IMG/VR virus record: IMGVR_UViG_2149837021_000077
Coordinates: 1-13,038 of that record
Reading direction: 5' to 3' (one strand)
Origin: a virus
Length of the DNA: 13,038 bases
Position 1 is the first letter of the stretch; each line of letters starts with the position of its first letter. Position numbers and translations under genes: made by a program. The notes under the pieces are model-generated. The model worked only from the letters and a program-made list of their open reading frames with translations, was not told the DNA's origin and did no database searches. This document shows, piece after piece, positions 1-13,038 of the stretch.

Positions 1-29
1 TTAATAAATAAAAATATTATATTTGTGAT

Positions 30-191
30 ATGGAAAGTGATATTAAAGAAACAATAAAACAAACAGAAGAGTATATTAAAGAATTGGATAAATGAATGCT
101 CGAATGTAAAGAGGCTACTAAAAGATTTGGTGATATTATAGACAAAGTATTAAAAAATAAAGATTATATGTTTATTTCTAAATTTGATTAA
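30..191 (+). CDS. small hypothetical protein, 53 aa if the TGA at 93-95 is read as Trp (otherwise 21-aa and 31-aa fragments)
   Basis: ATG 30-32 and TAA 189-191. The in-frame TGA at 93-95 is followed directly by ATG. It ends 2 nt before the next ATG. It is below the ORF-track size cutoff and has no recognisable motif. Confidence 0.3.
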
Positions 192-193
192 TT

Positions 194-334
194 ATGGATG
201 ATCATTTATTTAAAAAGCTTGAAGAACTAGAATACAGAATAGTTCAACTAGCAAACCAGAATAGAGGTTTAGTTTGGGAAGAAGTAGAAGAAATGCCAAA
301 ACCAGAAATTACTAATGCAACATATACTGATTAA
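194..334 (+). CDS. small hypothetical protein, 46 aa (MDDHLFKKLEELEYRIVQLANQNRGLVWEEVEEMPKPEITNATYTD)
   Basis: ATG 194-196 and TAA 332-334. It is tightly packed between neighbours (2-nt and 1-nt gaps). The N-terminal half looks helical or coiled-coil. Function unknown. Confidence 0.4.
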   Translation: MDDHLFKKLEELEYRIVQLANQNRGLVWEEVEEMPKPEITNATYTD

Positions 335-335
335 T

Positions 336-479
336 ATGAAATACCAAACCTATAAAGTATGTATAAATGGAGTGTATTATGTATATGTAATACCAGAAAA
401 TAGTAAGTTTTTAGTAGACTTACAAACAGGAGATTTAATACCTAAAGAAGATGATAAATTATTTGAAATGATGGAATAA
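336..479 (+). CDS. small hypothetical protein, 47 aa (MKYQTYKVCINGVYYVYVIPENSKFLVDLQTGDLIPKEDDKLFEMME)
   Basis: ATG 336-338 and TAA 477-479. It is the last plus-strand ORF before the convergent terminator hairpin. Confidence 0.4.
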   Translation: MKYQTYKVCINGVYYVYVIPENSKFLVDLQTGDLIPKEDDKLFEMME

Positions 480-483
480 ATGA

Positions 484-511
484 AAATAGGAGGGCATAAA
501 CCCTCCTATTT
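484..511. terminator. bidirectional intrinsic terminator between convergent transcription units
   Basis: Perfect inverted repeat AAATAGGAGGG / CCCTCCTATTT (484-494 and 501-511) with loop CATAAA. T-rich runs follow on both strands (tctgttt on +, TTTTCATTTATT on -). The HNH TAG stop (506-508) lies inside the stem. Confidence 0.6.
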
Positions 512-829
512 CTGTTTAAATCTTTGATAATTACTAACCGATGAATGAATAGCTTTATGACAAACTGAACATAATGTTATTAAATCTTCCAAATGTTCCT
601 GCTCATTATATAAATTCTCATACGTCTTATGATGTACCGATAAAGACCTATTTCCGCCTTCCTGAACACATCAGTTACAAGTTTGGCAGTGGTAGTTATC
701 CCGCAATAATATTTGCTCTCTAATGGCCTTAAAATCCTTTGATCTTATATATCTTTGGTACTTTAAATATTCTTCACTTCTTACTTTCTTCTTTGTCTTA
801 TGAAGCAGTTTACTTGATTTGGAGTCCAT
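506..829 (-). CDS. HNH endonuclease, 107 aa, one in-frame TGA (671-673)
   Basis: Hand translation: MDSKSSKLLHKTKKKVRSEEYLKYQRYIRSKDFKAIREQILLRDNYHCQTCN[TGA]CVQEGGNRSLSVHHKTYENLYNEQEHLEDLITLCSVCHKAIHSSVSNYQRFKQK. It has CxxC...HH...N...CxxCHxxxH HNH/zinc-finger spacing. ATG 827-829 lies 2 nt after the endolysin TAA. This is the only CDS ending in TAG. It is absent from the ORF track because the TGA splits it. Confidence 0.75.
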
Positions 830-831
830 AA

Positions 832-1284
832 TTATATAATTGTAAATTTCTGTCTTCTCTGCAAACCCTCTTTATTCTTCAGTCCTAAATGAATTCAACT
901 AGCTATTCCATTTCTAGGTTTCTCATAAATAAGTTGATCAAAATCATACTTTTCAATAGCTTCAGTAATCCAAACCTGAAATTCTTTCATTTGGCCGTTA
1001 CTTGGAATTATATCTGCTGCATATCCTGTTAGATGGGCAGATGTCAAAGATCCTCCTACAGCTTTATTAAGCTCATTACATCTATAACCTGAATTCACAC
1101 TTATTGCTGGATTCCCCAACCGATTAACATCACAATACTCTGCCCAATCACTTCTTAATGGGTCTAAAAGTTTCTCGACTAACTCTATAAGGTGTTCAGT
1201 AATCTCTTTATTTGGAGTATTATCTATCTTCTTAATAGAAGCTGTATCAGATCTTGTTAATTCACTAATAGTAAAATATTTCAT
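832..1284 (-). CDS. peptidoglycan peptidase of the M15 (VanY / L-Ala-D-Glu peptidase-like) family, endolysin, 150 aa, one in-frame TGA (895-897)
   Basis: Track ORF 895..1284 carries SGYRCNELNKAVGGSLTSAHLTGYAADI (the SxHxxGxAxD Zn motif) and FDQLIYE. Reading through the TGA gives ...NGIAS[W]IHLGLKNKEGLQRRQKFTII, then TAA at 832-834. This restores the W-x-H motif holding the last Zn-ligand His of the family. Confidence 0.85.
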
Positions 1285-1298
1285 TATTTAATAATATC

Positions 1299-1445
1299 TT
1301 TAAGCATAGTATAACGGTAAAATAAATGACATCCTGCACCAAGTGCTATGAGTACTAATGTAATCCAAAATGGAATTACTTTTACCATTAAAAATACTAA
1401 GATTATAATTACTATTGCTATTAAATATTTCATCCAATATTTCAT
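1299..1445 (-). CDS. small two-TM membrane protein, 48 aa, holin candidate
   Basis: MKYWMKYLIAIVIIILVFLMVKVIPFWITLVLIALGAGCHLFYRYYYA has two hydrophobic segments separated by a Lys. ATG 1443-1445 and TAA 1299-1301. It sits directly upstream of the endolysin. It is not in the ORF track because it is too short. Confidence 0.5.
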
Positions 1446-1448
1446 AAC

Positions 1449-2102
1449 TTATTTATTTAAAATTATACTTACTTTAATTCCTGCATCTCTTAGTTTTACT
1501 CAAGTATCAACTGGCATCTCATTATCACAATAAGATAAGCCTAAAATTCCAATATCTCTATCTTCTGATTTTAAATAGAATATTGCAATCTTATTAACAT
1601 CATTAGATTTAAATGTATAATACATTCTTCTATCTAATTCCTTTATATCTTCAACATCTCCAAATCATCCTCCTTTTTTAGATGTTTCCAATATAAATAA
1701 ATAATCAGATAATAGGAAGTCTTTATAGTGACTTGAAACTGGAGCAACTCCAGGTTCTGTTTCTTCACTATTCATAATTCCATAAGTGAATGGTAATCCT
1801 CCTAATCCTGAAGTGCCATTATGATACTCAATAACTCAAGCTCTATCTGCATTCGTATCATTTAAAAGGTCTTTAAGGATATATCTAACCTTAAGATCCG
1901 CTTCTTGTCGTATTACTTGATTAGTATTATGAACTGTTTCTATATAACTTACAACTTTATCATATATTATTCCTGGATTAGTACTTATAATTATTACATA
2001 AGAAATAAATATAAATCCAAATCCACCTTTAATTATTTCCCACAGTCCATATTTATCTACTCATTCTAATACCTTTCCAAACCAGTTTAATTTATTTTCC
2101 AT
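1449..2102 (-). CDS. N-terminally membrane-anchored protein, 217 aa, four in-frame TGA (2061-2063, 1836-1838, 1665-1667, 1500-1502); function unknown, first gene of the lysis-proximal cluster
   Basis: Hand translation: MENKLNWFGKVLE[W]VDKYGLWEIIKGGFGFIFISYVIIISTNPGIIYDKVV...NADRA[W]VIEYHNGTSGLGGLPFTYG...TSKKGG[W]FGDVEDIKELDRR...EMPVDT[W]VKLRDAGIKVSIILNK, then TAA 1449-1451. The start ATG overlaps the upstream TAA (TAATG at 2100-2104). No TAA or TAG occurs in 654 nt of AT-rich DNA. It is invisible in the standard-code track. Confidence 0.65.
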
Positions 2103-2527
2103 TACATATTATCAGAACAAGTACCCAGAGTGTTGTCTACAGCTAAATCAACTCTAACAAATACTCCAGTGCAAATATCTTTGAACTTCTGATAAAATGG
2201 AGTAAAAATTAAAGGATAAGAAATATCAACTTCTGGATATTGGTTATTAAATCGGTTAATTATATTAGTTAATGCTAATATTCCAGCTGATTGCTCTTCA
2301 AGCTGATTATTATCAGTCTCATCCCATCTTGCTATAAAATAGAGATTTAAAGAGTAAGTAATAGTATCCTCATCCATATTAAATGTATTTGGAGTTATAT
2401 AAAATACATTATATTCAATAGTTGGGATACTATTAAGTTCATATATATCCTTACTTCCTACAAAATTAATATTGGGTTCTTCAAGAGCACAAGCTTTTAA
2501 ATTGTTTATTAATTCAAAATACGTCAT
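2102..2527 (-). CDS. hypothetical virion protein, 141 aa (possible neck or head-tail joining component, by position only)
   Basis: This is track ORF 2102..2629 trimmed to the ATG at 2525-2527 (MTYFELINNL...), which lies 1 nt after the upstream gene's TAA (2529-2531). The 34-aa N-terminal extension would overlap the upstream CDS. TAA at 2102-2104. Confidence 0.6.
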   Translation of the reverse strand: MTYFELINNLKACALEEPNINFVGSKDIYELNSIPTIEYNVFYITPNTFNMDEDTITYSLNLYFIARWDETDNNQLEEQSAGILALTNIINRFNNQYPEVDISYPLIFTPFYQKFKDICTGVFVRVDLAVDNTLGTCSDNM

Positions 2528-2528
2528 T

Positions 2529-3212
2529 TTACTTACTCTTTTTATTGTTATCACTTGAAGGGAAATCATAAGCTCTTTGCAGAGGACCTTCACAAGAATT
2601 ATATCTCCAACCTTTACCTCTAGCTCCACCTAACCAAATAGTGCAAGATGAACTTGAATACATATTTGGATACATATCTTTAAGAGGTTTATAAGAATAC
2701 AATTCAGGAAAATCATTATAATATGTAATTACCCAATTTTGCAATCTAGTTTTAAAGAAATCTGCTTTATCTCTATAATATTTCTTAATAAGATTAACTT
2801 GGCTAATATCAGAAGTTAAATCTTTCTCATCATCAGTCCTCATAACCCCAAAATTACTCAGCTTAAACGAAATAGGTATAGTAATCTCACTTAATACTTG
2901 ATAAAGTAAATAAGGCTGAATATAGTAATCTAGCAATTCTTTATATCTATGATTTTCTGGGTCATCTATTGAAGTAGGATCATAAATAGGAGGTTCTATT
3001 GGATGAACTGGTTTATTTGGATCTTTTCAATCAATTACTAATTTCTGAATCTTTTCTAAGAGCTTAGTTCCAATTAATGACTGAAGCTCAATATCTTGTG
3101 CAAGTTTAATTGCTGACTGAAGATATTTACCAGAAACATTATTGTCTAAATTGGATTCTGATTTTATATAATCTTCAGATATTAATAGTACATTTCTATA
3201 ATTATTTTCCAT
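2529..3212 (-). CDS. head-tail adaptor/connector-like protein, 227 aa, one in-frame TGA (3027-3029)
   Basis: Track ORFs 3027..3212 and 2529..2936 are in the same phase. The 90 nt between them translate without a stop (...KLVID[W]KDPNKPVHPIEPPIYDPTSIDDPENHRYKELLDYYIQ...). The M at 2936 in the track is an internal TTG (Leu). The start overlaps the portal stop (TAATG at 3210-3214). The function call rests on position after portal and an N-terminal ISEDYIK...AQDIELQSLIG pattern recalled from gp6-like connectors, which is weak evidence. Confidence 0.55.
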
Positions 3213-4294
3213 TATTCAACTTGTTTAGTATCAGCTTCATTAAGGCTAAATGGTGAAATTGTGATTGAATTCTGCATTCCAAAGATCTTATCAAATGAAT
3301 CACAAATCTCTTTCTGAATAGGTCTAATCATAGTTCTATTATAAAGCTTGAATGAAGATTCAAATTCTTGCTCATTAAAACCAGTTGAATCTGAGTTAAT
3401 TCCAAATAAGTTAGGATTAGCTCTGAAGGCACAGAATATTTGATCTCTGGTTCTCTCAGATAATGATTGATATTTCTCATCAAAATCATCAGAATCTAAT
3501 CTTTCAATAGTAGTCTTATTTGCCTCATCTGCATTATATGAAATCAATATTCTGCCAGCATTCTGATAACCAGAGAACTTCTCATTAATATTCCTCTCAA
3601 TCTCCTCTCTAATTTCATCTGTAGGTTCCCCATTATTAAAGTTAATAATAAGATTACCCATAAATCCATTATTGATGTTATTTAAATGGAATTCATTAAT
3701 ATTTTTCTCAGTTTCACAAGATAAAATAGCAGCTCCATAAACAGGAATAGGATATACTCCTCTTGTTATATAACCTTTATTATAAAATATACTAGCTGGA
3801 TTTTCATCCCCAGCTCCAAATTTTGGATATTTTATAGCTTTTACAGACCAAGCTGTCCAATCAGTTGCATAATATAATATATCATTCTTTTCGCTTGACC
3901 TTACATTCATAAAATCAATATGATATATCTCTGCAACTCTTCCGAGCATATCTCTAATTACTTGGATAGCATAACCTCCAAATATCATCTTATCAATAGT
4001 GATTTTTCTCATTATATCAACTATTGTTTCACCTTTCTTGTTTACAACTACTTCAAATCCTGGAGCATTACATTTAACATCGTTACCAACAATAAAGTCA
4101 GCAGAACCATTAATAATGGATTGGAGAGTGGCAACATTTAAATATAAATCCCATAGATATAATGGATATTTGTTATCTTCTCCCCACATTACATAATCTT
4201 TTCCCCTCACTTTAGTTTCTGTAGGTAATACGATATTACTTGCAATAAATGGATCAATAGCACTTAACTGAACTTTTGTTTTATTTTCGCTCAT
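3212..4294 (-). CDS. phage portal protein (HK97/PF04860-like), 360 aa
   Basis: Its layout matches portal family architecture as I recall it: WGEDNKYPLYLWDLYLNVATLQSIINGSADFIVG, GGYAIQVIRD...EIYHIDFMNVR, YPIPVYGAA, NGFMGNLIINFNNGEPTDEIREEIE...FSGYQNAGRILISY, DDFDEKYQSLSERTRDQIFCAFRANPNLFG, LYNRTMIRPIQ. It contains no TGA. Confidence 0.8.
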   Translation of the reverse strand: MSENKTKVQLSAIDPFIASNIVLPTETKVRGKDYVMWGEDNKYPLYLWDLYLNVATLQSIINGSADFIVGNDVKCNAPGFEVVVNKKGETIVDIMRKITIDKMIFGGYAIQVIRDMLGRVAEIYHIDFMNVRSSEKNDILYYATDWTAWSVKAIKYPKFGAGDENPASIFYNKGYITRGVYPIPVYGAAILSCETEKNINEFHLNNINNGFMGNLIINFNNGEPTDEIREEIERNINEKFSGYQNAGRILISYNADEANKTTIERLDSDDFDEKYQSLSERTRDQIFCAFRANPNLFGINSDSTGFNEQEFESSFKLYNRTMIRPIQKEICDSFDKIFGMQNSITISPFSLNEADTKQVE

Positions 4295-4673
4295 AACTTA
4301 CGTATGTATTAGGTTTGTCGTATTGATAATTATTATTCTCATAATCTCCAATTCTTATTAATCCTGTTCCCAATATAGGTATTGGTTTACCAGCAACTAA
4401 TATCTGAGTACCATTAGTAAGAGTATTATTATATGTAACCAGAATAACTGGATTGCCATATAACTCTGATCTAAATGGATTGTTTACATCAACTATAACT
4501 TGAAATTTATTTGGATTAGTAAATAAAATATATTGATATTCACCGTCTCTCATTCCTTCTTGAAGTGTAATATCAAACTTATAGTAGATATTCTCAGAAT
4601 AATTCTGATTTTCAAGATTAAATGTATAAACTTCTTTAGTAGTTGTATTTTGCATTAATAAAGTATAATTCAT
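4281..4673 (-). CDS. hypothetical protein, 130 aa
   Basis: Intact ORF ending in TAA that overlaps the portal start by 14 nt. It is the first gene after the 4750-4775 terminator hairpin. No recognisable motif. Confidence 0.55.
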   Translation of the reverse strand: MNYTLLMQNTTTKEVYTFNLENQNYSENIYYKFDITLQEGMRDGEYQYILFTNPNKFQVIVDVNNPFRSELYGNPVILVTYNNTLTNGTQILVAGKPIPILGTGLIRIGDYENNNYQYDKPNTYVSYERK

Positions 4674-4737
4674 ATTTTACAGCAATTTACATTAGTTTTA
4701 CATATCTTTTTCTTAAAATATAAACTAATTTACTAAT

Positions 4738-4775
4738 GTATTAAAATAATTAAAGGAGACCTAAGCCTCCTTTAA
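4738..4775 (-). terminator. intrinsic terminator downstream of the fibre locus
   Basis: Minus-strand transcript has TTAAAGGAG-GCTTAGGT-CTCCTTTAA (9-bp stem, 4750-4775) followed by TTATTTTAAT. It lies in the 153-nt intergenic gap 4674-4826. Confidence 0.5.
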
Positions 4776-4826
4776 TGTCAAGTTTTTTACTCACTCAAAG
4801 TACTAAGAAAAAATAAAAACTGACAA

Positions 4827-5849
4827 TTAGTTTGAACTTGCTAAAGTTCAGTTTTTAGATGCAGCTAATGATTTCTGTTCCTCAGTAAGTGCATTATAAA
4901 CATCTGCTGCAAATTGAATGGTTTGAGATACTTCTCCTGTTAAATCAGCAGCTTTATTTAGAATATTATCAATAGTCAAAGAATTAAGACTTGGCAGTTT
5001 ACTTAAATCTAAATACGTTTTTAACCCTACTATTCCTCCCATATCAGTTATATAAGTATTATCGGAAGATCAGCTATAAAATGGCCAATTAGAAAAGTTT
5101 TGTCCTGCTGCACTTATACTTGTAACATCTCATTCAGGAAGTTCAGTTATATTATCAGGTAATTGTTCATAGAATCCTCCTATTTCCATATTAATTACAT
5201 TACCCGTAATATTAAACTTCATAGTTGGTAATATTGTCACTCTATCTTTTTGAACTCCAGTAAACATACCAGACATATGAATTGAACACCTTGGTCTAGA
5301 ACTATTAAACTCAATTTCATTTACATTAATAACAGAGTATGCAAAAGTATTGGTAAAACTAGAATTACCATTCTCTTCAATAATAAATTTTTGAATTATT
5401 GGAGAACTGTCTTGTATTTGAGTATTATAAAAAGCAAAGTTAGCACTGCTACAATATATTTCTGCTGGAAATAAAATATCAGAACATTTGATTTGATAAA
5501 AAATATATTCTAAATCATAATTCAAAATATTAAATGTGCTATTTAAATTTATTGTTATGCCCTTTAAATTTGCGTCTTGAAAAAACCATTTTGTAGAACT
5601 AGGATCATCAAATGAATATGTAACATTATCATATTGCTCTTGTGTCATACTAGAATATGCAAGTGTTAATCCATAATCATTTAAATTAATCTTTCCTCCA
5701 CCACCTCCAGAAATCTGTCCTATCTTATCTGCATAGCTTCTAAAGGTATCTGAATCTGATACAGCAACACCTTTAGCTACAATAGCATCTTTAATGGCAC
5801 TCTTAGTACCTTCAAGATACGTTAATTTATCAGAAATTGTATTTGCCAT
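4827..5849 (-). CDS. tail fibre / receptor-binding protein paralogue 3, 340 aa, three in-frame TGA (5130-5132, 5070-5072, 4848-4850)
   Basis: Track ORFs 5130..5849 and 4848..5042 are in phase. The joining segment reads ...ELPE[W]DVTSISAAGQNFSNWPFYS[W]SSDNTYITDMGGIVGL... and the tail reads ...EEQKSLAASKN[W]TLASSN, then TAA 4827-4829. The N-terminal DKLTYLEGTKSAIKDAIVAKGVAVSDSDTFRSYADKIGQISGGGGG is typical of phage fibre N-termini. The C-terminal module is shared with the 6716 and 10464 genes. Confidence 0.7.
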
Positions 5850-5850
5850 A

Positions 5851-6474
5851 TTAGATTACTTCACCATTAATTGTATCAAGAGTAGTTGAAATATTACCAA
5901 TCTGAGCTTGAATTGCTGAGATTTCTCCATCTAACTCTGTCATCTTTGTATTATATGCATCTGTAGTTACATAGTTTGATAACTCACTTTTATCTGCTTT
6001 AAGTGCAACTTCATCTTTAGTAGCTAATCCAGATACATCAGGAATCTTATTCTCTACAGCTGTAAGTTCTTCTTTAGTAGCAAAATCACTAGTATCAGGA
6101 ATTTCTGCTTTAGTTGCATAATTACTTAAATCTACAGATAGTTGCAAACCTTCTCCATTTCTATGTAAAGATAGAGGTTGATTAGCTTGGAATACTTCCC
6201 CTTTAAGATTAGTAATCTCAGTATTAATTGGAACAAGCTTAGCATCTCTAGATTGATCTACTAAAGGAGGAACTTGATCTTCAATACTTTCTGTTACTTT
6301 AGTATTAATTAACTCTTCTGCTTTCTCTTCAGAAATGTAATTACCTTTAGGTTGGAATCTTTCATCTGCTTCAATCTTAGTATAAGAACCAACAGGAAGT
6401 TGTCCAGATTCAATACCACATTTCTTACTTACATAAAAAGTTTGTGTATTTTTAGTGTTCTTAAGTATAATCAT
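5851..6474 (-). CDS. coiled-coil tail fibre protein, 207 aa
   Basis: It has repeated xxYATKxE(L/V)-type heptad-like motifs (LSVDLSNYATKAEIPDTSDFATKEELTAVENKIPDVSGLATKDEVALKADKSELSNYV). It shares LSVDLS(N/T)YAT with the 800-aa fibre. It is tightly packed (TAA then ATG on both sides). Confidence 0.7.
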   Translation of the reverse strand: MIILKNTKNTQTFYVSKKCGIESGQLPVGSYTKIEADERFQPKGNYISEEKAEELINTKVTESIEDQVPPLVDQSRDAKLVPINTEITNLKGEVFQANQPLSLHRNGEGLQLSVDLSNYATKAEIPDTSDFATKEELTAVENKIPDVSGLATKDEVALKADKSELSNYVTTDAYNTKMTELDGEISAIQAQIGNISTTLDTINGEVI

Positions 6475-6476
6475 AA

Positions 6477-6713
6477 TTATCTAACTTTTATTGATTCCTC
6501 ATACTCTTTAGAAGCTTTAATAGCTAATTCTTTATATTCAGCATCCTTATCTAAAGAGACTTCTGATAGATGCTCTAAATAGCAACTTAAAGGACAGATA
6601 CATTCAGTAAATGAACTGTATAATTTAATATCCATTCCTTCTTTATAGTTAGTAAGTACATAACCTTCTTCTGGACTAACTACTTTATATTTTTCTTTAA
6701 TTTCAATTTTCAT
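6477..6713 (-). CDS. small fibre-associated protein, 78 aa, paralogue of 10243..10464 (possible fibre chaperone or adaptor)
   Basis: This is track ORF 6477..6740 trimmed to ATG 6711-6713 (MKIEIKEKYKVV...), 2 nt after the upstream TAA (6716-6718). The core PEEGYVLTNYKEGMDIKLYSSFTECICPL aligns with SDEGYFITSYKEGDDIKEYSASTILYCPL of the other copy (16 of 29 identical by hand). Confidence 0.6.
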   Translation of the reverse strand: MKIEIKEKYKVVSPEEGYVLTNYKEGMDIKLYSSFTECICPLSCYLEHLSEVSLDKDAEYKELAIKASKEYEESIKVR

Positions 6714-6715
6714 AA

Positions 6716-7837
6716 TTATGCAACTCGATTTATACTTCAATTCTTTGAAGCTATTAATGATTTCTGTTCACTTGTTAATTTATCATATGCAGTAGATTTG
6801 AATGATATACTTGTATAAGAGGCTACTGCTGTGCCAATAGATTCAGCTATAGTTTGTAATGAATCTGTAGATAGATTTGGAGATTGTGCAAAATAAAGAA
6901 CGCCTCCTTTAGTTAAACTCTCTCCTAATCCATTTAAAGCTCCTACAGTTACTAATTCTGGACAAGATGCCGCAAAACTAGTACAATCTGTAACAAGATG
7001 GCAATCTATTTCTGGTGTAGCTATTAACCTACTACAAGTACTAAACATATAGCTTATATCTGTAATTCCAGTAAAGGTAAAATTACTTGGAATAGTTGTT
7101 AGATATAATGCTCTATGAAACATATGATTACAATCTCCTTTAAATGGAATATTAATCGTTATATTATCTATATTAGTAGCTCCATCACTAGTTTCTGCAA
7201 ATGCCCATTTTGGATCTACTAATACAAGATTTTGAAAATTATTCATTACAGAGAAATCATTATTATCTATTTTTACTCCAATAAATAAATAATTTGCACT
7301 TACTTCTTTAGTAGTTGTAGGTATTTTAACATTAGATAAAGTAGCACTATGTATTATTTGACCCCAAAATTGAGATTCATTAGCCCATCGTCCATATGCT
7401 TCATTAAGATTAGTAATCTCCTGGTTATTTAGATCAAAATGAGATGTTTTAAAAAACCCTCCTTTTTTACTTAAATCTCCACTATTTAACTTTACATCTG
7501 CATATGTTTGAGCAGAACCTATAATACTACAAAGAGGTACACCATCTATATTAAGGGCTAATTCACTTAAATCAGCAGTGAAGCTAATTACTGTAGAATT
7601 AGAACCAGATCCTCTACCCATTCAATCCCTTTGTATATCATTTATAGTTCCATCATAACTGCTAAATACATAACTGCAAGGATCAACTATTGTAGTACCT
7701 TGAGGAACTGGATTAGCAACTGTAACTATTTGTGGATTACAAGGATTGATAGGCCAGACTTTGGTACTGCCGACATAAATAGCAGTACCTTGTCTGTCGC
7801 CTACATAAAATGTTTTTAAATCATCTCTAATATTCAT
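6716..7837 (-). CDS. BspA-like leucine-rich-repeat tail fibre / receptor-binding protein paralogue 2, 373 aa, two in-frame TGA (7622-7624, 6737-6739)
   Basis: Track ORFs 7622..7837 and 6737..7621 are contiguous and in phase (…DIQRD[TGA]MGRGSGS…). The tail reads …SEQKSLIASKN[W]SINRVA, then TAA 6716-6718. LRR-like repeats are present (CNHMFHRALYLTTIPSNFTFTGITDISYMFSTCSRLIATPEIDC...). The N-terminal FYVGDRQGTAIYVGSTKVWPI is fibre-like. The 5' boundary is less certain because the TGA is followed directly by ATG. Confidence 0.65.
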
Positions 7838-7838
7838 A

Positions 7839-10241
7839 TTATTCTACAATTAAATATTGTGTATTAGGATCTTTAGTTGATAAACCATCATACTCTGATT
7901 GAGTTAGAACAGTAATAGTATTTATTTGAGGTTGGGTTCCAGTTCCAGCTTCAATATAGTTTCCAGCAGGCTGAATACCTAAATCTGATAAACTCTTATT
8001 GCCAGATAACTCAACAGAATTAATCTGAGGTTTATTTGTTAACTGAGTATAGTCAGTAGTCCCTCCACCTCCAGATATTTCAAGATTACCTTCTCCTAAA
8101 ATACTTTCACCATTAATAGTCTTTATATTAGTCCCAGAGACTAATTGCTCCTGATAACTATGATAACTAGTATCTGCTGATACTCCAGTTGGAGTAATAG
8201 TAGTTTGAACTACAGTATGATTAGCTGTAGTACTTTCAAAATGGAAAATAGCTTGAATATTTTCTCCTGAAACAAAACATACTTCTGGAGCTGCTATATC
8301 ACCATAACCTAGAATATTTACATAATAAAGCTCAAATGGTGTTTTATTAGCTATAGCATTCTTAACAGCAGCGAAATCTCCAGAAAGATGAGTAGTGGAA
8401 TTTATAAATAGAAATGGAATATTAGAACCACTTTCAATTTCTATATTACCTTCTCCAAGTAAAGACTGACTATTGATTGTTTTGATATTAGTTCCACTTA
8501 CAAGTAAATCTTGCTTAGTAGCCATCTCTTTATCAAGTGAATCAATCTTATTTCCATCTTCTTCTTGCTTTGTTTTAATAATTGATATGTCTGAAGTATT
8601 AGTTGCTACTTGAGTAGATAAAGATTCTACCACAGAAGAATCAGCTTTACCAGCAAGTTCTGTTTTTGTTGCATAATCTCCTACAGGCTGTTTAGTAGCA
8701 AGCTGCTCATCAACATAAGTCTTATCTGCTTTACCTGCTAAATCTCCAGAAACCTCTGCTTCAGTTACAAAGTTAGAATCATTAGTAAGCTCACTAACTT
8801 TAGTTGGAATATCACTCTTTAAAGCATAATCTCCTTTATCTTGTTTTAGATCTATTTTTCCTTCTAAAGAAGTTTCTAATGTATTAACCTTATCATTAGT
8901 TGCATAAGTAGATAAATCTACAGATAATTGAGTCTTATCTTCATTAAAAGCTAATGGAGCTTGAGGAGCAAATACTCCTTGTTTTTCCTCAAGTTTGGCA
9001 TCTACTTCTTCTTTAGTATATCCTTTATTAATAAGATCAATCTCAGTAACTTTAACAGTCATATTACCATTATTTACTAAGATTGCATTAATAACTACTA
9101 ATACATCATTATCTTGGAAATAATAGCCATATAAATCAATAGTTTCAGGATGTTCAATAGTTGCAACAGGAATAACTATAATATCACCTTTATATGTAAT
9201 CTGGCAGAATAAATAGAAGTCCAGATTAGTTCTAATAAAGTCATAGATATGTTTCTGTCTTACAGGATCATTCTCATCTAAATTAAGTAAGAAATGATTC
9301 TCAAAAGCAGAGATTACATTATCTATAATAGATATATTCTTTCCTGCTGTAAGCGTTCCCTGTTTTGAAGCTATCTCTTTATTAATAGCTGTATTTAAAG
9401 CATCAATTTCAGCTTTGGTATATTTATCTGCTAATTGTGCGTATAGAGGGCCATTAACAATACCAGCTTGGTTAGTCTCTGTATTATATATTGGAAGTTC
9501 AACTGCTTCTCCAGTTTGATTACCAAATACAGGAGCTAAAGTAACTTTAGATGGGACTGATTGAATATTAATGGCAGGTACGATTGAAGCTGCTCCAGAT
9601 AATTCAGTTCCATTTAAAGATGGTTTGTTACGAATAGTATTATAATCTGCAGAAATAGTATTCTCTTCAATTACTATACCATCACCTTGGTTTAATTTAT
9701 TCTGTTTAGAATTTATTGCACTTTCAGTAGCTTCTTTTGTAAGATAATTATCTTCAACTCATTTTTCAGTAGCATATCCATCTAAGCTACTAATAAACCC
9801 ACTATCATTAGTTAATTGTGAAGTTTTTGTTGGTATCTCAGATTTATCAGCTTTATTGGCAACTGCATCTGAAATTTCATTTGTAACCTCTTCTTTAGTC
9901 GGATAATCAGCTAATCATTCAGTTATCTGATTATCAATATTTTCAGCACTTGGAATAGTACTCTTTATTTGCTCTAACTCAGAATTAATAGTAACAATAT
10001 CTTCAGATGACGCTAATCCCAACTCTTCCGAAGTCATATTACCATTTAACTCAATACTATTGATCTCAGGTTTATCCTGAAGATCAAAATAGCTATTAGT
10101 AGCTAACTGAGAACCATCCATAACCTTAACTTCATCATCCTTGTCAATAACAATAACTTTAGTCACATTTGACTTATCTATTGTTTCAACTTCAAGGACA
10201 TTAAGATAAGGAAGAATTGTCTTTTCAGTTTCGTTTGCCAT
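7839..10241 (-). CDS. long tail fibre protein, 800 aa, two in-frame TGA (9915-9917, 9759-9761)
   Basis: Track ORFs 9915..10241 and 7839..9062 are in phase. I translated all of 9063-9914 and found no TAA or TAG. Downstream of the TGA at 9759-9761, the 696 nt 9063-9758 are open with no ATG, GTG or TTG, which is why the track starts at 9062. Contexts are ...NQITE[W]LADYPTKEEV and ...GYATEK[W]VEDNYLTKE. Fibre motifs recur: NKPxINxxELxGN x3 and SGTNIKTINxxSxLGEGNxEI x2. Confidence 0.75.
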
Positions 10242-10242
10242 A

Positions 10243-10464
10243 TTATTTATTTTTATAAGATTCCTCTTGTTCTTTTAAATATCTTTCATTTGTTTCTGCA
10301 TCAATAACCCTATAAATAGATGTATCAAAGGTTAAAGGGCAATATAAAATAGTTGATGCACTATACTCTTTAATATCATCACCTTCTTTATATGAGGTGA
10401 TAAAATATCCTTCATCAGAGTATAACTTTATAAATATGCTAGTTTCAATATGTAAATGTTCCAT
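10243..10464 (-). CDS. small fibre-associated protein, 73 aa, paralogue of 6477..6713
   Basis: Intact ORF ending in TAA. Its start overlaps the upstream stop (TAATG at 10462-10466). It shares the EGYxxTxYKEGxDIKxYS...CPL core with the other copy. Confidence 0.65.
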   Translation of the reverse strand: MEHLHIETSIFIKLYSDEGYFITSYKEGDDIKEYSASTILYCPLTFDTSIYRVIDAETNERYLKEQEESYKNK

Positions 10465-11417
10465 TATGCTAATACCCAGTTTTTATTAGTAGCTATTTCT
10501 TTCTGTTTATCTGATAATTTTGCCAGATTGGTAGCTCCTAATGTTAAAGTTTTGCTATCCTCTCCAGTTAAATCAACCAATGCATTAATAACAGACATTA
10601 AAGAATCAGTAGTAAGATTGGTACTTGCTGATAGATATAATCCTGCTCTAAGTTCACCGTTTACTGTAATATTAGTAATTCCACCACATTTTGAAAATAT
10701 AGGATTTATTGAACTTTCTTGAGATGTGTATGATGGAATGTTTAATGTTACATCTGTTAATCTAATGCAATCTCCAAACATATTAGTAGTAGTTACTAAT
10801 TTAGGAGCGTCTAAATTAAGTGTTTTCAGGCTATTATATCCATATAAGGTACCTCTGCTAAACATATTAGACCCATCTGTTAATTCAGGCATTGGAATAG
10901 TGAATGATGTTAAATCAGCACATTCTGTAAACATATGTCTGCCATCTTCTAATTTAGGCAATTGCATAGTGAACTCCTTAATGTTTGATCTTTGACATTT
11001 ATATCTTCCATCAACTAAATTTTCTCAACCTACAACATTTGCAGGAACAGATGTTCCCGTAAACCTATATAAATTAACTACAGCTTGCGTAATATCATAA
11101 GTTGAAGAAGTTGGCACATTAATAGTAGCTTCAACTTTCTCCATAACATCATAATTAGAGTCAGGAAGAATCTCTATTGGTCCATTCTGAGTAATTGTAA
11201 TTGCTTTGGAAGCTTGAACTGTAGGAACTACTACATCAACAGATACATTTACCTTAGACATTCCATCATATCCCTCATCTGGCAGTACTTCAAACTCTGC
11301 ATTTTGAGTATATTCTACTGATTTTTCTTGTAACTTACATTCAGCAGCTTTAATTAAATCTAAATTTTTAGTTGTAGTATTTTTAGCTACTGGTTCTGAT
11401 GTGAATACTATTGCCAT
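10464..11417 (-). CDS. BspA-like leucine-rich-repeat tail fibre / receptor-binding protein paralogue 1, 317 aa, one in-frame TGA (11025-11027)
   Basis: Track ORFs 11025..11417 and 10464..10967 are in phase and the joint reads ...PANVVG[W]ENLVDGRYKCQRSNIKEFTMQLPKLEDG.... The N-terminus has a duplicated motif (EVLPDEGYDGMSKVNVSV and EILPDSNYDVMEKVEATINVP). The C-terminus has MFxxCxxLT-type LRRs and ends ...SDKQKEIATNKNWVLA, with the W as TGG at 10476-10478. Confidence 0.75.
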
Positions 11418-11460
11418 ATTATTTTTCTATAAAATATAAATTATTCATTATGTGGTATAT

Positions 11461-11497
11461 AAACAAAATAAGGGGCAAGTAAATTAATACTCGCCCC
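11461..11497 (-). terminator. intrinsic terminator after the capsid / 174-aa gene pair
   Basis: Minus-strand transcript has GGGGCGAGU-AUUAAUUU-ACUUGCCCC (9-bp stem including one G-U, 11472-11497) followed by UUAUUUUGUUU. It lies about 10 nt after the TAA at 11509-11511. Confidence 0.65.
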
Positions 11498-11508
11498 TCT
11501 TTCTGTTA

Positions 11509-12033
11509 TTAAGCACCTACAACGCTTTGGATAGCTTCTGCAGATAACTCATAAGGATAAGAGTCTGAATCTGTTGAAAGTGTCAGAGTATAAGCATTCT
11601 GATCACCTTTAGCAGTACCAGTAACACCCGTACCAGCGGAAGCGCTTACATAATCATCTTTACCTAAGAACCAATACTTACCATTGCTATCTTCAACAAC
11701 AACTGCAAGCTGACCAATTGATAAAGCTGCAATCTCTACTCGTTTTGCTGTTTCCATCTTTGTAAATACAAGAGCAAGCTCATTACTTACATAATTAACA
11801 CCAGCACTTTCATCTACATTTAAAGTTGAGGTTAGAGAACCAGTAGCCTTTCTAAATTGGTAGTTATACCATTTAGCTGAAGACTCAAGAGTAATAGCTG
11901 AAATCATATTGCTCTCAGGATCAACCGTTACACTTTTAACATCTGCATACTGGGTAATCCATACCTGTTTGATTCCACCCAATGAAGGTTGGCAATCAAG
12001 TGTGATTCCTGCGATAGTTATTAAACAAGCCAT
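11509..12033 (-). CDS. conserved virion protein, 174 aa, possibly a major tail / tube-like protein
   Basis: Intact ORF with no TGA, directly downstream of the capsid gene and upstream of a strong terminator. The pattern GGIKQVWITQY...YQFRKATGSLTSTL...ELALVFTKM...NGKYWFLG...TGTAKGDQNAYTLTL resembles small tail-tube proteins, from memory only. The CDS call is firm but the function is tentative. Confidence 0.6.
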   Translation of the reverse strand: MACLITIAGITLDCQPSLGGIKQVWITQYADVKSVTVDPESNMISAITLESSAKWYNYQFRKATGSLTSTLNVDESAGVNYVSNELALVFTKMETAKRVEIAALSIGQLAVVVEDSNGKYWFLGKDDYVSASAGTGVTGTAKGDQNAYTLTLSTDSDSYPYELSAEAIQSVVGA

Positions 12034-12073
12034 AATTTCAATATCATTTAGAAGTTAATAAAATCTATTGAAA

Positions 12074-12979
12074 TTAAGCCTTGGCGCCTAATACTACTTC
12101 GTCAGGGAAAGCAACTTGTACACCAGCGTTAAATTCAATAGCTAATCTGAACTCGCGGAAATCCTGTGAATACCACAATTCGAATTTCTCTTCATCGTTC
12201 ATCATATCTACACCATAGAAGAAGTTCTTGTCTAACTGACCAGCAACAATCTTATCAGTTCCATTAAGACCATTAACAGCAATAACCTTAACCTGTGAAC
12301 CAGGAAGATAAATCTCACCATTAAGGCTCTCTCCGCTATAGTGGAAATAGTTCTTCTCAACAAGTTCATTTACGAACTTACGGAACATATCAGCACCAAC
12401 AAGAATAGAAGCACCATCAAGAACCTTCTCAGGAATTGCATTATAAACTGCCATAATGTCAGTATAGGCAGATGTTCCAGCAATTGTTACATCTACAGTA
12501 CCAGCATCAGCAGCAAGAATCTTAAGCAGACCATCAAAATACTTCAAGTTATTAGTTTCTGAAGCCGTATCACCCTGCCAGATAGCTATCTCAATAGCCT
12601 CTTTTACGTTCTCTACAACAGCATTTACGAAATCCTCTTCAAAAGGAAGAGTCTTCTGACCAGCGGCTACCTTAACTGCATACTGAGTCCAGTATTTCAG
12701 CATAGCCTTATCGCAATATGCCATATTAATCTTAATATTACCAGTCTTAAGAATTCTCTGAGAAAGAGTCTGAGTTCCAGCCTCATCCCAACCACAAGTA
12801 AGACCATCACCGAACTGAACATCGGTAGATAACAGGTTAAGAGCAGCATCAGTTTTAATATCTGTCTGAAGATTAAACAAACTTGCACTCTTAGCTTTTA
12901 AAACCGCTTCCTTAATAAGAGGGAGACGTCTTTGCTCCACATAAGCAGGAAGAGTTGTCATTACAGGACTATTTGCCAT
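12074..12979 (-). CDS. major capsid protein, HK97-fold family, 301 aa
   Basis: Intact ORF ending in TAA. Its layout is typical of HK97-like capsid proteins (…IWQGDTA…YFDGLLKIL…, C-terminal …KFELWYSQDFREFRLAIEFNAGVQVAFPDEVVLG). All four Trp are TGG and it has no TGA. Confidence 0.8.
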   Translation of the reverse strand: MANSPVMTTLPAYVEQRRLPLIKEAVLKAKSASLFNLQTDIKTDAALNLLSTDVQFGDGLTCGWDEAGTQTLSQRILKTGNIKINMAYCDKAMLKYWTQYAVKVAAGQKTLPFEEDFVNAVVENVKEAIEIAIWQGDTASETNNLKYFDGLLKILAADAGTVDVTIAGTSAYTDIMAVYNAIPEKVLDGASILVGADMFRKFVNELVEKNYFHYSGESLNGEIYLPGSQVKVIAVNGLNGTDKIVAGQLDKNFFYGVDMMNDEEKFELWYSQDFREFRLAIEFNAGVQVAFPDEVVLGAKA

Positions 12980-13038
12980 AATTATTTAAAATTTTATAAA
13001 TTAACCAATAAAGTTTTTAAGCTTTCTATCTATTTCTG

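Follow-up and report, generated by a model that had tools for sequence, protein, structure and literature searches.

Leucine-rich repeat-type proteins and a small conserved downstream partner family in a phage that reads TGA as tryptophan

Which proteins does an uncultured phage present to its host, and why are two of the candidate genes in one such phage each followed at once by a second, very small gene? The question is raised by a viral sequence of 13,038 nucleotides (nt; IMG/VR record IMGVR_UViG_2149837021_000077, positions 1 to 13,038), called the window here. On its minus strand, positions 4827-11417 encode three predicted receptor-binding proteins (RBP1, RBP2 and RBP3), two coiled-coil fibres and two small proteins, S1 and S2, which directly follow RBP1 and RBP2 (Table 1). 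The three RBPs are true paralogues and, at the level of sequence profiles, classify as BspA/DUF285-type leucine-rich repeat (LRR) proteins, RBP2 and RBP3 only by way of RBP1 and of variants in relatives. S is a widespread, previously unannotated family with a confident fold model and no relative among solved structures, and its adjacency to LRR genes is conserved across phage lineages. S is probably an accessory factor for LRR-type receptor-binding proteins, a reading that we hold with some reserve.

Seeing these genes whole depends on the genetic code. Under translation table 11 each RBP frame falls into two pieces (RBP1 into 10464..10967 and 11025..11417, RBP2 into 6737..7621 and 7622..7837, RBP3 into 4848..5042 and 5130..5849). 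With TGA as a sense codon each becomes a single minus-strand open reading frame (ORF), as does the long fibre (lengths in Table 1), and the minus-strand ORFs of the window total 4045 rather than 3281 amino acids (aa). An earlier sequence-only reading of this DNA had the large-gene coordinates right, but left unsaid that they hold with TGA read as tryptophan. RBP1 carries one in-frame TGA (aa 131, 11025-11027), RBP2 two (7622-7624 and 6737-6739, one of them the Trp of its K-N-W motif), RBP3 three (5130-5132, 5070-5072 and 4848-4850) and the long fibre two. The first bases of these codons in the minus-strand genes are 11025, 9915, 9759, 7622, 6737, 5130, 5070 and 4848, followed in the rest of the window by 3027, 2061, 1836, 1665, 1500, 895 and 671. 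Standard-code gene calling splits eight genes of the window. TGA is found in the three RBP genes, the long fibre, 2529..3212, the M15 endolysin, the HNH gene and 1449..2102, which lies beside the lysis genes and has the highest TGA density in the window (four codons); it is absent from the genes for the capsid, the 174-aa protein, the portal, S1, S2, the short fibre and the holin-like protein.

The amino acid is identified by the conserved C-terminal motif. In the window the K-N-W tryptophan is TGG in RBP1 and TGA in RBP2 and RBP3, and across 27 related loci the orthologues alternate at the invariant Trp of K(N/G)W (RBP2, 12 TGA and 15 TGG; RBP3, 24 TGA and 3 TGG; RBP1, 14 TGG); TGA therefore encodes Trp in this phage. 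The 512 called genes of the lineage end in TAA (458) or TAG (54) and contain 486 in-frame TGA against 900 TGG codons; the caller allowed TAA and TAG as the only stops, so that the stop count alone cannot exclude TGA stops. Independent support for TGA as sense comes from genes conserved across relatives, which cross TGA as single ORFs. Two distant relatives with similar gene order and the standard code (L030 and L031) have no in-frame TGA. The pattern agrees with a recoding of late genes that is confined to particular gut-phage lineages (bioRxiv 10.1101/2021.08.26.457843). As in the code-4 gut phages of Borges et al. (same reference), TGA is in frame in structural and lysis genes and unused as a stop. 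No tRNA gene, including a suppressor tRNA(UCA), was found here in the window or in the fetched parts of 14 related loci (all but about 10 kb of each genome). The locus is thus a clean internal demonstration of TGA read as Trp, in which standard-code callers cut all three RBP genes in two.

Pairwise BLASTP with composition-based statistics relates all three RBPs to one another: RBP1 to RBP2 (E = 1.5e-8, 27% identity over 175 aa), RBP1 to RBP3 (E = 7.6e-10, 35% over 92 aa) and RBP2 to RBP3 (E = 1.3e-6, 56% over 27 aa). The sequence-only reading had proposed three paralogues with a common C-terminal module; these alignments bear it out, with the motif as it was described and a similarity that is not merely compositional. 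The RBP2 and RBP3 forms of relatives align over 237 aa (32% identity, E = 1.8e-24), so the paralogy extends beyond the tail into the body. At the nucleotide level the only stretch common to the three gene ends is 39 nt long (4842-4880, 6731-6769 and 10470-10508). Within it the 15-mer TAATGATTTCTGTTC, which codes EQKSL, occurs exactly twice (4866-4880 and 6755-6769; 0 expected by chance), an identity that had been reported correctly except that its second copy was placed one base off, at 6754-6768. Nucleotide similarity limited to 39 nt marks the duplication as old. S1 and S2 are 46% identical and each has closer relatives in other phages; together with the 27% identity of RBP1 and RBP2, this makes the copies old paralogues or separate acquisitions, and the cassette duplication once suggested for this cluster is not supported in the sense of a recent local event.

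The LRR assignment begins with RBP1, which matches Pfam LRR_5 at 21.2 bits (E = 2.8e-4), below the 27.7-bit gathering cut-off; RBP2 and RBP3 have no Pfam match. RBP1 has 344 homologous proteins at E <= 1e-3, mostly on ~30-kb contigs, among which precomputed LRR_5 (PF13306) and DUF285 (PF03382) annotations are frequent. A profile of the RBP1 family searched against PDB sequences identifies the BspA-type LRR proteins 4gt6 (from Faecalibacterium prausnitzii, E = 3.1e-11), 4fs7 (E = 1.1e-10) and 4h09 (from Eubacterium ventriosum, E = 9.2e-5). For structure we used an AlphaFold2 (AF2) model of a 98%-identical orthologue of RBP1, P0001 (predicted local distance difference test, pLDDT, 85.7; >90 over the C-terminal 200 aa). 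Foldseek searches of the PDB with this full multi-domain model return matches that are almost all LRR proteins (4h09, probability 0.97), with a weak E of 0.02 and a low template-modelling (TM) score. PHROGs and NCBIfam searches of the window LRR proteins gave nothing useful, only one of 50,697 phage records, a hypothetical protein, resembles the LRR half of RBP1, and an annotated phage collection gave no match to the whole window, the capsid protein or S2 in nucleotide and protein searches. The bodies of RBP1 and its homologues resemble BspA-type/DUF285 surface proteins by profile and MFxxCxxLT repeats and, more tentatively, in predicted fold. The phage proteins differ in being encoded in a late structural operon, in having adaptors of fibre type or stalk repeats at the N-terminus, and in their conserved helical cap with its K(N/G)W end. 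Bacterial BspA-type LRR proteins are surface adhesins.

Comparison of the 27 loci shows how these proteins are built. Proteins at the same gene position hardly vary over their first 30-40 residues and share the conserved cap, but exchange the middle part between forms. For RBP2, the mean distance is 0.06 at the N-terminus against 0.48 in the middle part, and its forms among relatives measure 373, 304-308 and 279-286 aa. RBP1 ranges from 317 to 500 aa; in window RBP1 two ~35-aa beta repeats (KLQEKSVEYTQNAEFEVLPDEGYDGMSKVNVSVDV and ASKAITITQNGPIEILPDSNYDVMEKVEATINV) would form a stalk of its own, and the version in the sister lineage L035 has 544 aa and six stalk repeats rather than two. In the AF2 model the cap consists of three short helices (270-279, 294-299 and 303-311, pLDDT >95) and two strands and closes the solenoid. 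Its pattern, L-T-x-E/D-S-L-x-x-I-x-x-x-L-x-D-x-T-G ... K-G/N-W, also ends the LRR proteins of unrelated phages (L028, L033, L034, L035, L038, L040 and cr128_1). Each LRR protein combines an N-terminal adaptor peculiar to its gene position, an interchangeable LRR body, presumed to contact the host surface, and the conserved helical cap with K(N/G)W at its end. Tail fibres and receptor-binding proteins typically join a constant N-terminal adaptor to a distal body that can be swapped, and the LRR proteins have this fixed N-terminal part and swapped distal part among close relatives.

The small genes are as real as the large ones. S1 and S2 align at E = 2.4e-10, with 59% identity over a 29-aa core (EGYxxTxYKEGxDIKxYS...CPL). 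Close relatives of S form 23 clusters in which Y34, C42, P43 and L44 are invariant, and an exhaustive profile search yields 232 clusters at 50% identity, 73 of them with E <= 1e-10 and nearly all of 65-100 aa. The genes are under purifying selection, with a median ratio of non-synonymous to synonymous substitution rates (dN/dS) of 0.23 over 69 pairs, and all 41 copies of the small ORFs counted across the loci are intact. The sequence-only reading, which saw two paralogous partner genes here, is supported in that both ORFs are genuine genes, conserved in relatives and linked to the gene upstream. S proteins are acidic (median isoelectric point, pI, 4.7), with C-terminal tails that are variable and acidic, and the AF2 model of S1 (pLDDT 95.4, predicted TM-score 0.79) has five strands and a C-terminal helix.

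No known family claims this protein. Searches of S members found nothing meaningful in Pfam and no match in PHROGs, NCBIfam or PDB sequences; among PDB folds the best match to the model is not significant (E = 0.47), and in BFVD the model matches only uncharacterised small proteins of uncultured phages (TM-score 0.69). A scan of bacterial and archaeal genomes found no relative, hence no prophage or host lead; an annotated phage collection searched with S1 and with cr128_1 gp023 returned cr128_1 only; IMG/VR searched with single distant S proteins returned nothing; and we found no description in the literature of the S family or of phage cassettes joining an LRR protein to a small partner. Fusions account for 3 of the best 150 matches. 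P0278 (605 aa) begins with an S domain and continues into an LRR-like region that ends in KGW; P0259 (231 aa) joins an N-terminal S domain to a further ~165-aa C-terminal domain. P0142 and P0043 are RBP1-S fusions arising from deletion, intermediates of decay. Separately, in L032 (6783-8234) the stop codon of the DUF285 gene is a TGA that lies 27 nt upstream of the ATG of S, in frame with it; read-through of this TGA would give an LRR-S fusion if those 27 nt are free of stops.

Across lineages S keeps one neighbour. It lies directly 3' of an LRR/DUF285 or cap-bearing protein in 8 of the 9 phage lineages examined. The window lineage has it after an LRR gene twice (RBP1-S1 and RBP2-S2), and in the sister lineage L035 a 544-aa LRR gene is followed by a 72-aa S and then the endolysin. 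In L038, LRR genes of 537 and 258 aa precede an 80-aa S; in L032 and L039, DUF285 genes of 396 and 588 aa precede S; and in L034 a 1083-aa DUF285 gene precedes a 112-aa S. The pair also occurs elsewhere in the genome, after a 735-aa DUF285 gene past the portal and DUF6712 genes in L033, and after a 745-aa DUF285 gene between portal and protease in L028 and L040, which have an HK97-type capsid. In the RefSeq crassvirus cr128_1 (NC_055885), gp022 (LRR) is followed by gp023 (S, E = 4e-28) and gp020 (LRR) by gp021, a 64-aa protein that is weakly S-like. The gene 3' of S, by contrast, changes from one lineage to the next with few exceptions (fibre, protease-side protein, DUF5675, DUF6712, endolysin). 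Assignment of S to the downstream gene was rejected, since that neighbour varies and S1 is lost with RBP1, not with the long fibre.

RBP1 and S1 make up a discrete cassette, which genomes either have or lack as a whole. It measures 1176 bp between 27-nt direct repeats (81% identity; Table 1) and is cleanly absent from eight genomes (L016-L019, L022, L023, L026 and L027), where an identical 91-nt spacer abuts the long-fibre start codon; the 91-nt spacer between the 174-aa gene and RBP1 is conserved in relatives. With bodies swapped within positions and this pair present or absent as one, the modular character proposed for the cluster holds. The absence of a partner beside RBP3 likewise holds in the relatives: in none of the 27 loci does an S gene accompany it, and in the window a terminator-like hairpin (4776-4749) follows instead.

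From this arrangement we propose that S, translationally coupled to phage LRR genes and conserved just downstream of them, is the partner of the LRR proteins and would probably act on them, either aiding folding or assembly of the LRR protein or remaining bound to it as a small distal subunit. Where a genome has fewer S than LRR genes, a single S could act in trans on more than one LRR paralogue. Virion location, receptor binding, contact between S and the LRR protein, and a chaperone as opposed to a structural role are all predicted. Several observations weigh against S as an accessory factor of the LRR proteins. RBP3 never has an S gene, L008 has RBP2 without S2, and other phage genomes hold more LRR than S genes, several LRR genes there being without S. 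In L030 and L031, S follows a coiled-coil fibre-like, non-LRR protein. L004 retains an intact S1 beside a 29-aa RBP1 remnant, a decay intermediate. L012 and L017 pair nearly the same RBP2 with different S variants. No sequence or fold search gave S a match to any known chaperone family. The covariation between RBP and partner that the sequence-only reading proposed as a check is present (Mantel r = 0.68 for S2 and RBP2), but S2 follows the start of the adjacent downstream fibre as well or better (r = 0.83) and no distant gene, which is plain genetic linkage. Recognition of the shared C-terminal module by S was also rejected: S-linked LRR proteins of L032 and L039 are without the module, and S-less LRR proteins in the same genomes have it.

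It is possible, if the less likely outcome, that S is instead a stoichiometric virion subunit on the LRR protein, a distal cap or a docking domain for extra binding modules, adding to or modulating host recognition much like gp38, which sits at the tip of T2-type long tail fibres. The compact, confidently predicted fold, the variable acidic tails and the translational coupling to the LRR gene suit such a part, and P0278 and P0259, with S N-terminal in larger proteins, hint that S can belong to a mature protein; such fusions are, however, rare. Multi-LRR genomes usually have fewer S genes, and L008 does without S2, so a trans-acting factor fits more easily than an obligatory 1:1 subunit. Along the same line, we put forward only tentatively that S is a new class of partner, structurally unprecedented, that caps or completes the LRR solenoid and stays on the virion, LRR body and S together being an exchangeable host-range unit that small siphovirus-like gut phages share with Crassvirales and that moves between unrelated phage orders.

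The fibres bear on where these proteins would sit. The long fibre matches Phage_tail_C (PF24243, the Pfam 'phage tail tip' domain) at E = 1.2e-9, above the curated cut-off, and the short fibre resembles the long one (E = 4.5e-4). Internal duplications are seen in the long fibre, with LVSGTNIKTIN(S/G)(Q/E)S(L/I)LGEGN(I/L)EI present twice (for example 8077-8136 and 8437-8496) and the motif PEINSIELNGN / PQINSVELSGN near both ends; its length among relatives varies between 707 and 870 aa. In L014 the short fibre and RBP3 are fused by an in-frame deletion, short-fibre residues 1-44 running into RBP3 at about residue 26. One L038 polypeptide has the 26-aa Phage_tail_C motif, terminal in the window long fibre, in its middle, directly before an LRR body and cap. 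These arrangements suggest that the distal parts of the long and the short fibre may be encoded as separate genes, RBP2 and RBP3 respectively, and the natural fusions suggest that each coiled-coil fibre and the next LRR protein are one functional unit. The long fibre would then probably carry RBP2 at its distal end, and the short fibre RBP3. A likeness of the short-fibre N-terminus to protein N-termini of L030 and L038, plausible by eye, was not significant by BLASTP. The branched or multivalent adsorption apparatus once proposed for this cluster is a prediction of the same kind.

Alternatively, the LRR proteins and fibres could be head fibres or decoration adhesins for mucus or non-host surfaces, with S helping to dock or fold them; we think this improbable. 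The adhesin role of bacterial BspA-type proteins would suit it, as would the position of the cluster between capsid/tube genes and the portal gene and that of the LRR-S pair beside portal, protease and capsid genes in L028, L033 and L040. In crAss001 the gene directly past the portal is a head fibre (PMC10172136). Against head fibres stands the tail-tip domain that ends the long fibre. In L035, moreover, a single LRR gene with S follows a tube-like gene, and the only other RBP candidate in the 19.6 kb fetched is a BACON-domain protein. The conserved adaptor with an exchangeable distal body is likewise the build of tail fibres and RBPs.

Less probable still is that S is unrelated to the LRR protein and travels in the same recombination block as a hitch-hiker (for example a moron or regulator, or a factor for lysis or exclusion). 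The covariation of S2 with the downstream fibre start would be expected of a hitch-hiker, and the gene after S is lysis-related or a membrane protein in cr128_1 (annotated as a lysis regulatory protein), L035 and L030. The upstream neighbour is nonetheless the constant one, the LRR-S pair moves together (L033) and is gained and lost together, and no transmembrane segment or signal peptide is evident in the S sequence. That the similarities are compositional or due to chance in an AT-rich genome (window ~30% GC), and the small ORFs, which are without database annotation, not genes, is already refuted by BLASTP E values of 1e-6 to 1e-10 under composition-based statistics, hundreds of homologues, the dN/dS, the 41 intact instances and a model at pLDDT 95.

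An accessory factor for the LRR proteins would have precedents in other phages. Tail-fibre accessory genes lie directly 3' of the fibre gene, as with gp38 and gp57A of T4 and Tfa of Mu, P2 and lambda, and the known families include pure chaperones as well as proteins that remain on the fibre tip. S is likewise a small gene placed just past the distal host-binding gene, co-transcribed and translationally coupled with it, and exchanged with the distal module. It has no sequence or fold similarity to these proteins (Pfam, PHROG, NCBIfam, PDB) and, at ~75 aa, is far smaller than Tfa or gp38; its client would be an LRR solenoid, whereas theirs are trimeric beta-helical fibre tips. S thus occupies the position of a fibre chaperone, just 3' of a client-type gene, and matches none of the chaperone families; by position, the LRR and S arrangement resembles the logic of a fibre gene with its accessory gene (gp37/gp38, fibre/Tfa).

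The locus itself is compact. From 11499 to 4749 on the minus strand, the hairpins at either edge would delimit a single, densely arranged late operon, which encodes a modular host-adsorption set in a tailed gut phage of ~30 kb; its 4827-11417 core makes up 50.5% of the window, in keeping with the half that had been estimated. The seven genes between the hairpins are separated by 0-2 nt (TAATG, TAATATG, TAATTATG), no Shine-Dalgarno sequence was found at their junctions, and RBP1, the long fibre and RBP3 have the start context ...TAATATGGCAA in common. S2 starts at ATG 6713, not at the mechanically listed TTG 6740. The order is constant in the 27 loci: capsid (301 aa), 174-aa protein, [RBP1-S1], long fibre (700-870 aa), RBP2-S2, short fibre (about 200-240 aa), RBP3, 130-aa protein and portal.

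Table 1. Coordinates of the late-operon features in the window
Feature	Coordinates	Strand	Description
Terminator-like hairpin	11470..11499	-	12-bp stem, 6 GC pairs, T-run; between 174-aa gene and RBP1; upstream edge of predicted fibre/RBP operon
27-nt direct repeat, left copy	11411..11437		spans RBP1 start
RBP1	10464..11417	-	317 aa; disordered N-terminus, two beta repeats, BspA/DUF285-type LRR body (by profile), C-terminal cap
RBP1 C-terminal module	10467..10646	-	aa ~258-317: ...LTTDSLMSVINALVDLTGEDSKTLTLGATNLAKLSDKQKEIATNKNWVLA; Trp codon TGG
S1	10243..10464	-	73 aa, acidic, pI 4.6; ATG overlaps RBP1 stop codon (TAATG)
27-nt direct repeat, right copy	10235..10261		spans long-fibre start
Long fibre	7839..10241	-	800 aa, coiled coil and short repeats; C-terminal Phage_tail_C motif (ITVLTQSEYDGLSTKDPNTQYLIVE)
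RBP2	6716..7837	-	373 aa; conserved N-terminal adaptor (MNIRDDLKTFYVGDRQGTAIYVGSTKVWP), exchangeable body, C-terminal cap
RBP2 C-terminal module	6719..6910	-	aa ~310-373: ...SPNLSTDSLQTIAESIG...YDKLTSEQKSLIASKNwSINRVA
S2	6477..6713	-	78 aa, pI 5.0; start 2 nt past RBP2 stop
Short fibre	5851..6474	-	207 aa, coiled coil; repeat motifs in common with long fibre
RBP3	4827..5849	-	340 aa; conserved helical N-terminus (MANTISDKLTYLEGTKSAIKDAIVAKGV...), irregular repeat body, C-terminal cap; no S gene after
RBP3 C-terminal module	4830..5021	-	aa ~277-340: ...LPSLNSLTIDNILNKAADLTGEVSQTIQFAADVYNALTEEQKSLAASKNwTLASSN
Terminator-like hairpin	4749..4776	-	12-bp stem; 50 nt 3' of RBP3; downstream edge of predicted operon

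Around the operon, the 174-aa protein (11509-12033) after the capsid gene matches only unannotated PHROGs and found no match among PDB sequences; where it lies and the pattern of its sequence suggest a tail tube protein. Further upstream, relatives (for example L001, 979-7016) encode a 1118-aa protein with no family match and a ~890-aa tape-measure-like protein, which gives an unusual gene order: tape measure, protease, scaffold, capsid, tube, fibres, portal. At the other end of the window, small plus-strand ORFs (30..191, 194..334 and 315..479, one with an in-frame TGA) oppose all other genes and the slope of the cumulative GC skew shifts at positions 1-500, which may be the edge of a divergently transcribed module. 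A protein of ~210-225 aa with an N-terminal transmembrane segment is encoded near the lysis genes of the window (1449-2102, 217 aa), in L030 (8209-8883), where it lies directly 3' of S, and in L037 (7272-7898). Mobile endonucleases occur in the structural module of relatives: NUMOD3 past the portal gene (L001 and L036), HNH_3 between short fibre and RBP3 (L036), a 212-aa GIY-YIG-like ORF 5' of the capsid gene (L004) and a GIY-YIG-type homing endonuclease gene (192 aa) directly 3' of the fibre-RBP3 fusion in L014 (endonuclease gene at 14936-15514, fusion at 13770-14792). The lack of Shine-Dalgarno sequences in the late genes, the BACON-domain protein of L035 (18895-19635) and the cassette in common with a crassvirus hint at a Bacteroidota host.

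The crassvirus connection extends the arrangement beyond small phages. The gp020-gp023 cassettes of cr128_1 lie among the genes directly after the portal gene, and all four proteins are annotated as hypothetical; its two tandem LRR genes have the same C-terminal cap as the window proteins, in a phage of another order (95 kb and podovirus-like, against about 30 kb). In crAss001 the genes at that position encode a head fibre (gp21) and a tail fibre (gp22), with further fibre proteins unresolved (PMC10172136). No LRR or S homologue was found in the cultured crAss001 or in any other cultured phage.

The RBPs of gut phages seldom look like the ones described from cultured phages. What this locus suggests is a whole class of host binders built on LRRs, fixed in their architecture and with a small protein as their dedicated partner, the latter spanning at least 232 clusters and unannotated until now. 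Cassettes of an LRR gene with S would mark where recombination swaps specificity, and may give annotators a handle on host-range genes in uncultured phages, crassviruses included.

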